From the NCBI GenBank assembly GCA_963755915.1, contig CAVWLP010000002.1, forward strand, positions 1,056,001 through 1,120,000: a stretch of 64,000 nucleotides of DNA, read 5' to 3'. The number at the start of each line of letters is the position of its first letter. Within the stretch, counting starts at the first letter, position 1. The DNA is from an uncultured Phycisphaerales bacterium. GTDB lineage: Bacteria; Planctomycetota; Phycisphaerae; Tepidisphaerales; Tepidisphaeraceae. The notes beneath the pieces are model-generated. The model did no database searches. It was not told the DNA's origin and worked only from the letters and a program-made list of their open reading frames with translations. The translations under genes and the position numbers were made by a program. Positions 27,901 to 30,859 of the stretch are shown piece after piece.

Positions 27901-28385
27901 GTTTCGCCCACTACATCACCCAGTACTGGCCCCACAACTTCCTCGAGATCGAACCTTTCCGAATTAACCTCACCGTCGTCGCCGGAATCCTCACCATCAT
28001 GGGCTACTCCATGATCGACACCATCGTCGTCTTCGACCGCATCCGCGAAAACCGCGGCCGCTACGGCCACCTCGACCGCAAAGTCATCAACGACGCCATC
28101 AATCAGACCCTCTCCCGCACCGTCCTCACCTGCGGCACCACCATCATGACCGTCTCTTTCATGTATTTCCTTGGTGGTGCAGGCATCCACGGCTTTACTT
28201 TCGTCCTTCTCATTGGCATATTGGTGGGAACATATTCGTCGGTAGCCATTGCCGCCCCCATGCTTCTCTGGGGCAAAGAAAAAAGTTCAGGCACCGGCGT
28301 TGTGCGGCCGCCAATGGCGCCAAAGGATTCAGGATCGGGAATCGTTAGACCCGGCCTGGCACCTGCAGCCCGGGCGAGCCTCTGA
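24913..28385 (+). CDS. secDF: Fused SecD/SecF protein translocase subunit (frameshifts near 26900 and 27320)
   Basis: GIDMVGG, LAIVLD, AGSLPA, GTAVDANVLIFERLREE, DIEFATG, GYSMIDTIVVFDRIREN, QTLSRT; no separate secF start evident. Confidence 0.9.
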
Positions 28386-28419
28386 CAATTCGATTGATTT
28401 TGGGAAAGGAGTCCCACCT

Positions 28420-29445
28420 ATGCGCAAGGATGTGAAATTCGGATTGACCATCGGGGCAATCCTCGTCGTTACCCTCGTTATCTACGTGATCGTGCTCTCC
28501 CGTGGCCCGGCTCTGCCTCCCCACATCAGCACCATCGCCGCCCAGAATCCCGCGGATCAATCCGCCGATTCCGACAACCCCATCCCCCCGGCCAATAATT
28601 CCGCCGCCGCCCCCAAGGACGGAACGGATGATCAGCAGGATGTGGCCGCCATCCCCCCGCCCGATGAGTCCACCACGACACCACCCCCGGCCGCTGTAAA
28701 CCAAAATGCCCCCGCCACCCAGCCAACACCCAATCCCCAGACCTCCGCCGCCGATTGGCAGAAGGTCCTCGATAACGGCCTCGCCCCCGGCGCCTCCTCC
28801 CCGCAGCACACCGTCACCCCCACCATCGACCCCAATGCATCGACTGCCATGAATCACCCCGGCATCGCCCCCACCCCCAACACCCCCATGATCGACCCGA
28901 TTCCGGCAACCCAGCCCTCCCGCTTCCTCATGAGCAATCTCCCCCCCATGTACGCCACCGATCCCGCCCCGGCACCAGCCCCGGCAATAACCACCCCATC
29001 CATTCCCGCGCCCACCATCGACCCCTCTCCCACCGCCTCAACCCCGCGCACCCACCGCGTCGCCGCCGGCGAATCCCCATATTCGATCTCCCAGCTCGTC
29101 TACGGCAGCGGCCGCTACTACAAAAAAATCCTCGCCGCCAATCCCAACATCGATCCCCACCGCCTGAAGATCGGCCAAATCCTTGTGATCCCCGAGCTTA
29201 GCGACACCGACCGCCCGGCCATAGTAAATCGATCCGCCGCCACACCGGTCGATTCCTCAACCTCCTACGTCGTCGTCTCCGGCGACACCCTCGAAACCAT
29301 CTCCCGCAAGCTCTACGGCGGCCCATCCATGATCGAAGACCTCTACAAGGCCAACAAAACCCTCATCGGCCCCGACGAAAACGTCCTCAAGATCGGCTGG
29401 GTCCTCAAACTCCCCGCTCCACCAACCGTTGCCGCACAGCGTTAG
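28420..29445 (+). CDS. Membrane-anchored protein with Pro-rich linker and two LysM domains
   Basis: N-terminal TM helix; HRVAAGES..ISQLVYG..I..ANP and YVVVSGDTL..ISRKLYG; AGGAG RBS. Confidence 0.88.
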   Translation: MRKDVKFGLTIGAILVVTLVIYVIVLSRGPALPPHISTIAAQNPADQSADSDNPIPPANNSAAAPKDGTDDQQDVAAIPPPDESTTTPPPAAVNQNAPATQPTPNPQTSAADWQKVLDNGLAPGASSPQHTVTPTIDPNASTAMNHPGIAPTPNTPMIDPIPATQPSRFLMSNLPPMYATDPAPAPAPAITTPSIPAPTIDPSPTASTPRTHRVAAGESPYSISQLVYGSGRYYKKILAANPNIDPHRLKIGQILVIPELSDTDRPAIVNRSAATPVDSSTSYVVVSGDTLETISRKLYGGPSMIEDLYKANKTLIGPDENVLKIGWVLKLPAPPTVAAQR

Positions 29446-29452
29446 CATCCTC

Positions 29453-29479
29453 GTTTAGCCGCGACCAGAAGGGGAGCGC
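29453..29479 (+). repeat. REP-like family A, copy 5
   Basis: GTTTAGCCGCGACCAGAAGGGGAGCGC. Confidence 0.75.
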
Positions 29480-29565
29480 TTTCCGGCCGCCGTAACTTAG
29501 CGGCCCCTATATATGACCGATTTCAGTAAATCCCCCAATTTTCGCCTGTTTTGCGCATTTTTTTG

Positions 29566-29594
29566 TTGCCAGTATTCCATCTCACCGCTAATCT
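29566..29594 (+). promoter_or_regulatory. Sigma70-type promoter
   Basis: TTGCCA-N17-TAATCT with a T-rich upstream tract. Confidence 0.65.
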
Positions 29595-29597
29595 CTG

Positions 29598-29892
29598 GAC
29601 TTGTCGCCTTTCGCCTTCCGCTCGGAGCACGGCAGGCCAATCGCGAGGTCAAATTCGCATCGTCAGCATTTGCTCTGCTTGTCTCTCTCGGCCGAAAAGT
29701 AGTCTTTTGAAGGATTGGGCGTCTTCCGGAGTTTCTGGGGCGATCTTTTTCTCGCCGTCAGAATGGAAACCAGGGCGCCGGACGCCAGTGTCCTCCACGG
29801 ACACCGGCCAAACCGGGCAGCGGCTGATCCGCTCGGGAGGAAATGGAGAGAAGGGAAAGGATAAAGGGCGGGCTGCGGAGCCCGCCCTTTTT
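29598..29892 (+). ncRNA. Candidate structured non-coding RNA, family unassigned
   Basis: Promoter and terminator with no credible ORF between them; 5'/3' ends complementary; nested helices visible by eye. Confidence 0.6.
29863..29892 (+). terminator. Intrinsic terminator (probably bidirectional)
   Basis: AAAGGGCGGGCT-GCGG-AGCCCGCCCTTT-TT. Confidence 0.85.
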
Positions 29893-29901
29893 GTCTGCGC
29901 A

Positions 29902-30420
29902 CTATTTGTGCCCAAAACCCGATGGACAAATCACCGTGTAGACCACGGGATGATTCTCATCCGGAAGGGGCTCCGACTCTGTCCTCTTATCGCCATAGTA
30001 AAAGTTCCACTTTCGGGGCGGCATGTACGGTTTGTACAGCGGAACCCCCAGATACTGCGCCCCCAGTTTGAAATGCTCAACCATTAAAACATCCCCGTCC
30101 TCCCCCTCAACTGAAAAATTCCCGTCTGCACCCGTTACTCTGTCAACCCGTTTGAAGCACCCCGATCCCCTGTCCTGAATCAATGGAGGGATAAGCGGGT
30201 TGAATCTGACCTCAATTTGAACCATCACCCCGGCGACCGGCTCCCCCCGTTCGTCAACCAGCCGGCCATAAAAATCGATCTCCCCGTTTCCCCTCGAATA
30301 ATCCCACCAGCGATACACCGAATATCCCCCCACGCTCAGGAAGCCAAATGCGAACAGAATCGCCAGCCAGATTGCCCTGTGGACACCCCCCTTGATTGGC
30401 GTTGCTTTGACTTCCGTCAT
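29902..30420 (-). CDS. Hypothetical membrane-anchored protein with carboxypeptidase-regulatory-like beta domain
   Basis: TM helix, then FYGRLVDERGEPVAGV..., TGADGNFSV. Confidence 0.7.
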   Translation of the reverse strand: MTEVKATPIKGGVHRAIWLAILFAFGFLSVGGYSVYRWWDYSRGNGEIDFYGRLVDERGEPVAGVMVQIEVRFNPLIPPLIQDRGSGCFKRVDRVTGADGNFSVEGEDGDVLMVEHFKLGAQYLGVPLYKPYMPPRKWNFYYGDKRTESEPLPDENHPVVYTVICPSGFGHK

Positions 30421-30486
30421 CGATCCTCTCGTCATGGAAATATCGGCTCCACATCACGACGGCTCCAGTGAATTGGAAGCACCTGA

Positions 30487-30757
30487 TCACGTCGGTGCGC
30501 TTCCGGTAATGCTCTGCGTTTTTCTCAATAAAGCTCCGCCACTGCTCCGGCAAATCCTCCTCCGGAAAAATGGCTTTCACCGGACATTCGTCCTGGCACA
30601 AATGGCAGTCGATACACCTCGCCGGGTCGATATAAAGCATCGGGCTCTCCGCAAATCCTGTTTCGTCCTTCGTGGGATGGATACAGTCCACGGGGCAGAC
30701 CGCCACGCAGGCGGTGTCCTTTACCCCGATGCACGGCTCAGCAATCACGTATGCCAT
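30487..30757 (-). CDS. Ferredoxin (FdxA-like dicluster)
   Basis: YVIAEPCIGVKDTACVAVCPVDCIH, CIDCHLCQDECPVKAI; the stop is out of frame (probable indel), so the 3' end is approximate. Confidence 0.9.
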
Positions 30758-30807
30758 TGAAAACTCCTTTCGGGCGATGAACCGGCGGGAGCATAGTGAT
30801 TGCAGCG

Positions 30808-30859
30808 ACATAAATAAAATACATAATATCTTAGATAATCATAGATTTTAGTTATATCG
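30808..30859. promoter_or_regulatory. AT-rich LysR-type operator region between divergent ferredoxin and LysR genes
   Basis: ATAA-TCATAGATTTTAG-TTAT dyad and other T-N11-A spacings immediately before the LysR ATG. Confidence 0.5.

Follow-up and report, generated by a model that had tools for sequence, protein, structure and literature searches.

A putative non-coding RNA descended from the mRNA of a small-protein gene in one genus of Tepidisphaeraceae

SgrS/SgrT and RNAIII/hld are dual-function RNAs, CpxQ and SroC are sRNAs derived from 3' UTRs, and we know of few cases that show the birth of bacterial regulatory RNAs. The gene of the sRNA OxyS is reported to have arisen from a fragment of a peroxidase mRNA (Krieger et al. 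2022, PMC8825220). The unit analyzed in this work lies in a 64,000-nucleotide stretch of DNA (hereafter the window) from an uncultured Phycisphaerales bacterium. It resembles an origin of this type in that a non-coding transcript occurs where relatives have a protein gene, with the promoter and pieces of the mRNA kept and the ORF gone (PMC8825220). A sequence-only reading of the window had described the unit as a non-coding RNA, which our analysis retained, but it had missed the origin of the unit as the remnant of a protein gene, an origin revealed by an intact ORF at the same position in relatives.

Thirteen sister species share the unit; its reading frame is intact, frameshifted or lost depending on the species, whereas the RNA motifs are fixed. 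If the ORF-less RNA is functional, these species would represent a natural time series from mRNA to non-coding RNA. They would, in addition, hint at regulation by RNA in the class Phycisphaerae, on whose sRNAs our literature search found no work. If it is only the transcript of a pseudogene, the case would be an ordinary one, and a warning that a structured RNA does not follow from a promoter, a terminator, a missing ORF and numerous helices. We lean towards the former and consider it somewhat probable that the unit yields a non-coding RNA of mRNA origin that is maintained for a function at the RNA level, probably as a regulatory RNA.

A small-protein gene and its remnants

The genome of the window (G000) belongs to a genus of 13 genomes within Tepidisphaeraceae, class Phycisphaerae. 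A DNA search of 40 relatives matched nine genomes, eight of them among the 12 other genus members; only G001 was matched in full length (87% identity), the others just over the last ~75 nt, and the genus members G004, G005 and G012, all of which carry the unit with an ORF, were missed. Gathering homologues downstream of the LysM gene, a check proposed along with the earlier reading, recovered the unit at this position in all 13 genus genomes, with further loci contributed by metagenome contigs reached through the LysM protein. In a pattern search with the invariant blocks, the unit was detected in 8 of 141 family genomes, all within one of 76 genera. Within G000, nhmmer found the 3' element at this locus only, and tblastn with five intact proteins returned nothing better than E 0.02 as a paralogue of the protein.

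At the same position, several congeners and metagenome contigs carry a protein gene of 130-169 codons whose promoter, leader, 3' UTR and terminator are those of the unit. Four of the 13 genomes have an intact ORF (134-169 aa; G004, G007, G009, G012); it is begun in one whose contig ends within it (G005), frameshifted in two (G006, G011) and lost in six (G000, G001, G002, G003, G008, G010). The two frameshifts may be assembly errors, as both genomes are assemblies of few contigs. Low marker completeness was also noted for G006 (locus L042) and G011 (L004), and G001 shares both properties; the LysM protein of G001 (locus L002/L041) has a very long tree branch and an odd composition. Single-base indel errors in these three assemblies are a possible cause of both the LysM oddity and the frameshifts. 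The encoded protein begins with a signal peptide and ends in a hydrophobic C-terminal helix and a basic tail, with a variable middle in between, and is predicted to be secreted or anchored when intact. Its dN/dS of 0.32-0.49 in five pairs indicates that the intact protein is under purifying selection. The intact proteins have no Pfam or NCBIfam match, and a search of 5.8 billion proteins returned just 12 unnamed relatives.

In the window, the position of the start codon (29648-29650) reads GTC, where relatives have ATG or GTG. The following codons, beginning VKFASSAFALLVSLG, are still signal-peptide-like when compared by eye, and with no score, with the pattern MKxxAxxxxGLxxxLSG of the intact N-termini. 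No ATG, GTG or TTG occurs in the frame of this remnant between the inferred 5' end and the stop codon. The part coding for the mature protein is gone, leaving a transcript of ~290 nt compared with ~500-630 nt in the ORF-bearing forms (~200-330 nt shorter), and the C-terminal remnant is out of frame. Upstream of the coding part, ORF-bearing relatives present GAGCAYGUCAG 10-15 nt 5' of the start codon, and leader blocks of the same kind are found in the window (Table 1). The lesions of the window are common to G001 and the Illumina RNA contigs described below and are therefore no assembly artefact. As judged from these sequence comparisons, the unit is the decayed remnant of a putative small secreted-protein gene that is intact in sister species.

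Table 1 Features of the unit and of its neighbours in window coordinates
Feature	Coordinates	Strand	Basis
LysM-domain gene	28249-29445	+	Pfam LysM match; upstream neighbour of the unit
Seven-T run, UP-element-like	29558-29564	+	Just 5' of the -35 hexamer; T-run at the equivalent place in homologues
Promoter-like TTGCCA (29566-29571), N17, TAATCT (29589-29594)	29566-29594	+	Motif, kept in relatives
Inferred transcript, ~292 nt	29601-29892	+	Ends inferred from the -10 box (5') and the terminator (3')
5' UTR relic with blocks GUCGCCUUUCG (29603-29613) and GGAGCACGGCAGG (29624-29636)	29603-29647	+	Same blocks in leaders of ORF-bearing relatives
Dead start codon and signal-peptide remnant VKFASSAFALLVSLGRKVVF, up to TGA at 29708-29710	29648-29710	+	Likeness to intact N-termini read by eye, no score
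C-terminal coding remnant (SSG...AGW region)	29711-29832	+	Alignments; frames broken, deletion in the former membrane-helix segment
Invariant block UCUUCCGG, 5' strand of the proposed long-range helix P1	29722-29729	+	Invariance, RNAalifold
Invariant block UCGGGAGG, consensus YCGGGAGR, 3' strand of P1	29833-29840	+	In the 3' UTR of ORF-bearing forms; RNAalifold
Purine-rich tail AAAU..AGGGA..AGGA, between P1 and terminator	29841-29865	+	Conserved in all homologues
Intrinsic terminator, stem 29866-29874/29879-29887, loop GCGG, five T	29866-29892	+	Fold, conservation; block GCGGAGC invariant
Neighbour ORF downstream, 177 aa	29902-30435	-	No Pfam or NCBIfam match

Open frames do exist in the remnant, and a small peptide might still be encoded, for example by a 49-aa ORF (29715-29864) or by the frame 29601-29700, the latter staying open in G001 despite a 15-nt in-frame insertion. 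We nevertheless regard this as very improbable. In both G001 and the RNA contigs, 1-nt insertions near 29754-29758 throw the 49-aa ORF out of frame, and the upstream frame offers just a TTG at its extreme 5' end, which is TTA in G001 and is preceded by no Shine-Dalgarno sequence, while no frame is common with the sister clade. The earlier statement that the unit contains no credible ORF agrees with this result, in that none of the frames is conserved.

In the sister ORF-less clade, which comprises G002, G003, G008, G010 and metagenome alleles, the ATG is kept and followed by a stop at codon 3, and the signal peptide is deleted, unlike in the window clade, in which the ATG was lost and the signal peptide kept. 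On the LysM tree, both ORF-less clades are sisters (support 90/89), whereas an ORF-less allele with a separate large deletion, the metagenome locus L020, is placed among ORF-bearing ones. Together, these positions indicate at least two losses of the ORF, and possibly more occurred. The recurrent ORF decay in the genus (six lost and two frameshifted of 13), the separate deletion of L020 inside an ORF-bearing clade and the different lesions of the two clades, each of which may reflect a fairly recent loss, also favor the serious and main rival of our reading. In this rival, the unit would be an expressed pseudogene, a dead gene in which decay has yet to reach the strong promoter and terminator and whose RNA has no function. 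We regard it as possible, albeit not probable; the unit is deleted in none of the 13 genomes, and further observations against it follow from the sequence comparisons presented below.

Transcription signals and RNA contigs

The unit sits between two convergent genes, the LysM gene (+) and the ORF at 29902-30435 (-). The promoter-like motif TTGCCA-N17-TAATCT put forward by the sequence-only reading is present and is conserved in relatives together with the T-run upstream of it. TTGCCA agrees with the sigma-70 hexamer at five of six positions and TAATCT at just three of six, with GCTAAT at 29587-29592 as an alternative -10, and a generic promoter scan called no promoter at the unit; the longest RNA contig begins at 29606, although contigs cannot fix a 5' end. 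The arrangement is the sole match in the window, and 12 of 100 shuffled sequences gave at least one match at no more than one mismatch. The motif by itself is thus weak, and its conservation is what counts. The promoter reads TTGCCA...GCTAAT in the ORF-less clades and TTGCTT/TTCCCT...GATAAT in ORF-bearing relatives, and its identity between the window and G001 is 0.91, compared with 0.68 for the upstream spacer.

The strong terminator of the earlier reading was corroborated by its folding energy of -26.5 kcal/mol (z -5.19), which none of 200 shuffled sequences equaled. With a stem of 9 bp G+C (12 bp including flanking A-U pairs) followed by five U, it has the features of an intrinsic (Rho-independent) terminator, although it is absent from the list returned by a generic terminator scan. 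The alignment of this element contains one compensatory pair, G-C to A-U, and U.G variants that fit the + strand only. Some reservation applies to its conservation, which may in part be caused by a convergent dnaA, as the terminator appears to stand 27 nt behind this gene in most of the genus. In G008 (locus L036), for instance, dnaA was identified by Pfam as convergent with the unit, its stop codon lying 27 nt past the common hairpin.

Several side observations concern the surroundings of the unit. Other loci of the clades concerned (L007, L008 and others) have a similar reverse-strand shadow ORF downstream, which suggests the same dnaA arrangement as in G008. G000 and G001 carry a ferredoxin gene in place of dnaA downstream of the unit (window 29900-30811), from which we conclude that the locus has been rearranged. 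The ~600 nt after the terminator (29893-30530), which include the 177-aa ORF, have no counterpart in G001, and the alignment with G001 resumes near 30533 at the ferredoxin gene. Directly after the LysM stop codon, a dispersed repeat of ~32 nt is located (29451-29483), for which 71 matches on both strands of the genome were obtained (blastn-short, E<=1); among the 40 rows inspected, 37 showed an identity of 90% or more over 27-38 nt. Unrelated RNA contigs from runs X2 and X3 contain it as well, and it may be a REP-like intergenic element.

Metatranscriptomes were represented by one run per study, and the 24 RNA runs of 24 studies contain 0.05-0.10 of the sampled words of the stretch. The four runs that were aligned to the locus each contain RNA contigs of 176-274 nt, which share ~90% identity with it and cover 29606-29861, 29618-29849, 29631-29849 and 29630-29789. 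One of them shows exactly the differences of G001 over the covered part, including the 15-nt insertion, while the others represent further alleles. The LysM 3' end and the region past 29861 had no contig cover in the four studies, which is not evidence of absence. Assembled RNA contigs carry no information on strand, ends or abundance, and DNA carry-over is possible; bounded as they are by the predicted start and the terminator hairpin, these contigs fit a discrete, fairly abundant RNA. The conserved promoter and terminator of its own, together with RNA contigs from four studies that lie within the predicted transcript only, support the independent transcription that had been claimed for the unit.

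Sequence constraint and predicted fold

Comparison of the window with G001 revealed 24 substitutions in the 292 nt of RNA (0.92 identity), compared with 52 of 65 identical four-fold sites in the LysM gene (0.80; Fisher p 0.011 versus the RNA). Third codon positions are identical at 0.83 (LysM) and 0.61 (ferredoxin), and first and second positions at 0.91-0.97. For this pair of genomes, divergence is slower in the RNA than at four-fold or third codon positions, which argues against a functionless pseudogene transcript, as does the presence of a conserved island (29513-29872 versus G001) between flanks that are barely alignable on either side.

Between clades, identity amounts to 0.38-0.55 at four-fold sites, 0.51-0.61 in the spacer and the middle, 0.58-0.72 in the promoter and 0.73-0.81 in the last 85 nt. 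Within the ORF-less clades, the 3' end is identical at 0.87-0.99 and the promoter at 0.85-0.91, and this retention of the promoter after the loss of the ORF in both clades is another point against the pseudogene explanation. The parental promoter and transcript ends were retained after ORF loss, as in an origin of the OxyS type. The 16 unique homologues have in common the invariant blocks CTTCCGG, CGGGAG and GCGGAGC. CTTCCGG is unchanged in 16 of 16, also at synonymous sites where it codes for Ser-Ser-Gly. This invariance indicates a constraint at the RNA or DNA level even in the coding forms and is likewise a point against the pseudogene explanation. In the sister clade without an ORF, on the other hand, the middle of the RNA evolves at about the four-fold rate (0.80 versus 0.77 at four-fold sites), with ~50 nt of it missing in one member, as would be expected for a decaying gene.

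The pseudogene explanation is also favored by the predicted fold, which for the + strand is at chance level. The multi-branched minimum-energy fold reaches -123 kcal/mol (z -1.32), and 20 of 200 shuffled sequences were as stable. Of the earlier description of a highly structured RNA with nested helices and hairpins, the listed helices do exist in the sequence, but the structure as a whole does not exceed chance. The proposed pairing of the 5' and 3' ends did not hold either, since its closing stem (-19.7 kcal/mol) has a z of only -0.36 against shuffled 5' ends. Values across 17 homologues range from -1.67 to +1.73, and the stem can be attributed to composition, because the 5' end is rich in CU and the 3' end opposite it in GA. 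In the five sequences of the sister clade, RNAalifold predicted 25 varying pairs, of which 11 are kept and 14 broken in at least one sequence, with no double compensatory change.

Although the minus strand folds better (z -3.54), a minus-strand RNA was tried and rejected. The G.U pairs, the U.G pairs of P1, the conserved promoter and the terminator variants are compatible with the + strand only, and no sign of a minus-strand promoter was found.

The long-range helix P1, proposed from RNAalifold (29722-29729 with 29833-29840), is paired in 99.2% of alignment cells, with six of its eight pairs never varying and two varying on one side; no double compensatory change in P1 was found in the homologue alignment. 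Minimum-energy folds join the two blocks in 9 of 17 homologues, five in the same register and four shifted by one, whereas in the window's own minimum-energy fold CUUCCGG is paired with a nearer UGGAA instead of its P1 partner. By a rough estimate, not a computation, two such blocks would be complementary by chance in about 1 of 100 cases. The predicted helix P1 is consistent with these data, though unproven.

Candidate functions and comparison with known systems

The sequence-only reading had noted no hallmarks of RNase P, tmRNA, SRP, tRNA or common riboswitches, and no Rfam family reached its gathering score in the window or in any of seven related loci. In E-value mode, nine matches at E<=10 were obtained for 29400-30000, and most of those shown comprise the terminator hairpin alone. 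The same reading had raised the possibility of a divergent 6S RNA, which would act by sequestering RNA polymerase. Like 6S RNA (RF00013), the unit would be a non-coding RNA that stands alone, measures a few hundred nt and is possibly abundant; its length differs from that of 6S by no more than twofold, its recovery in metatranscriptome assemblies suggests sufficient abundance, and RF00013 gave no 6S RNA in G000 (none in the genome at E<=1; gathering score 46.4 bits). We nevertheless abandoned this identification as extremely improbable. Unlike a 6S RNA, the sequence has mRNA ancestry and no RF00013 match at E<=10 in 29400-30000. Its predicted fold contains no rod of ~180-200 nt with closing stem, large central bubble and terminal stem, and the unit was detected in just one of the 76 genera of the family, where a 6S RNA would show broad conservation across the phylum or class.

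Moreover, a separate 6S-like locus occurs in the genus and the class. With RF00013, matches at E<=0.01 were obtained in 19 of 41 related genomes, six of them above cut-off, and five congeners have full-length, sub-threshold matches of 29.5-41.4 bits at other loci. A side observation concerns their homologue in G000, locus L066 (C3:1118615-1118894, minus strand), which is 75-78% identical to these five sequences and for which RNAalifold gives, together with them, a long closing stem that encloses a large internal region. L066 alone has no Rfam match at E<=1; we consider it a candidate 6S RNA of G000.

A specific form of our preferred explanation would be a protein-titrating RNA for CsrA, in which a CsrA paralogue would be bound by GGA motifs located in the leader loop, in the tail and in the loop of the terminator. 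Like the Csr/Rsm sponge RNAs (clan CL00106), the unit has a GGA-rich 3' part ending in a terminator, and its best sub-threshold Rfam match in a 601-nt search is PrrB_RsmZ (29774-29892, 19.5 bits, E 0.027). The 292 nt contain 12 GGA, compared with 7.3 +/- 1.9 in dinucleotide shuffles, of which 36 of 2000 reach 12, and the density of 41 per kb compares with a genome mean of ~19 per kb. G000 encodes three CsrA proteins (PF02599 matches above cut-off at C3:636292-636961, C2:925132-925290 and C2:1451469-1451642), only one of which is adjoined by the single FliW, leaving two without a FliW partner in the assembly. Hfq was not found in this 81% complete genome.

In contrast to genuine sponge RNAs, however, the PrrB_RsmZ score is far below the gathering score of 44, and no model of the clan reaches its gathering score at the unit. 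The GGA enrichment is modest, at only ~1.6-fold over shuffles, and the prediction places the best-conserved GGA, that of CGGGAGG, in the P1 stem, while some others lie in predicted loops. To our knowledge, no Csr-type sponge RNA has been described in this phylum, and a literature search found none. We therefore judge a CsrA sponge to be quite unlikely.

Our preferred reading, an mRNA-derived RNA kept for its function, can be summarized as follows. A non-coding RNA (29601-29892, + strand) with its own promoter would have descended from the mRNA of a genus-specific small protein. The window lineage has no start codon left, has undergone a deletion of the ORF middle and retains only broken frames, while the RNA-level parts of the old mRNA, namely the promoter, the leader blocks, UCUUCCGG/YCGGGAGR, the purine-rich tail and the terminator, were kept. 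The parent mRNA would already have had an RNA-level function in its UTRs, selection would now preserve this function, and the transcript would thereby survive as a regulatory RNA. The two invariant blocks could close a domain of ~110-145 nt, and the GGA-rich 3' module may bind or titrate an RNA-binding regulator or control transcript stability, which is the weakest step of the proposal. The confinement of the unit to a single genus is a reservation to be kept in mind.

Going one step further, we tentatively suggest, as a speculation to which we assign a low probability, that the parent was a dual-function mRNA whose UTR module, consisting of the UCUUCCGG/YCGGGAGR clamp, the tail rich in GGA and the terminator loop GCGGAGC, has a global regulator such as a CsrA paralogue without FliW as its binding partner. 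Its RNA activity would have outlived the ORF in at least two lineages, and a single genus would present several stages of the conversion.

Among known systems, the dual-function RNAs SgrS/SgrT and RNAIII/hld likewise combine an ORF and conserved RNA elements in one transcript, represented here by CTTCCGG at synonymous sites and by the 3' UTR as the most conserved segment; they differ in that an RNA-level activity of the ORF-bearing forms is here inferred from conservation only. As for CpxQ and SroC, the most conserved segment corresponds to an mRNA 3' UTR with its intrinsic terminator, but no sign of processing was seen here, and the RNA contigs span most of the transcript and not just its 3' end. 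Compared with the OxyS-type origin, both UTRs and a C-terminal remnant were kept instead of one fragment (PMC8825220), and intact, frameshifted and ORF-less stages occur here within one genus, with a regulatory role that is putative. The closest known kind is an sRNA born from the mRNA of a protein gene, of which the unit described here would be a new, genus-restricted example with an unusually complete series of stages.
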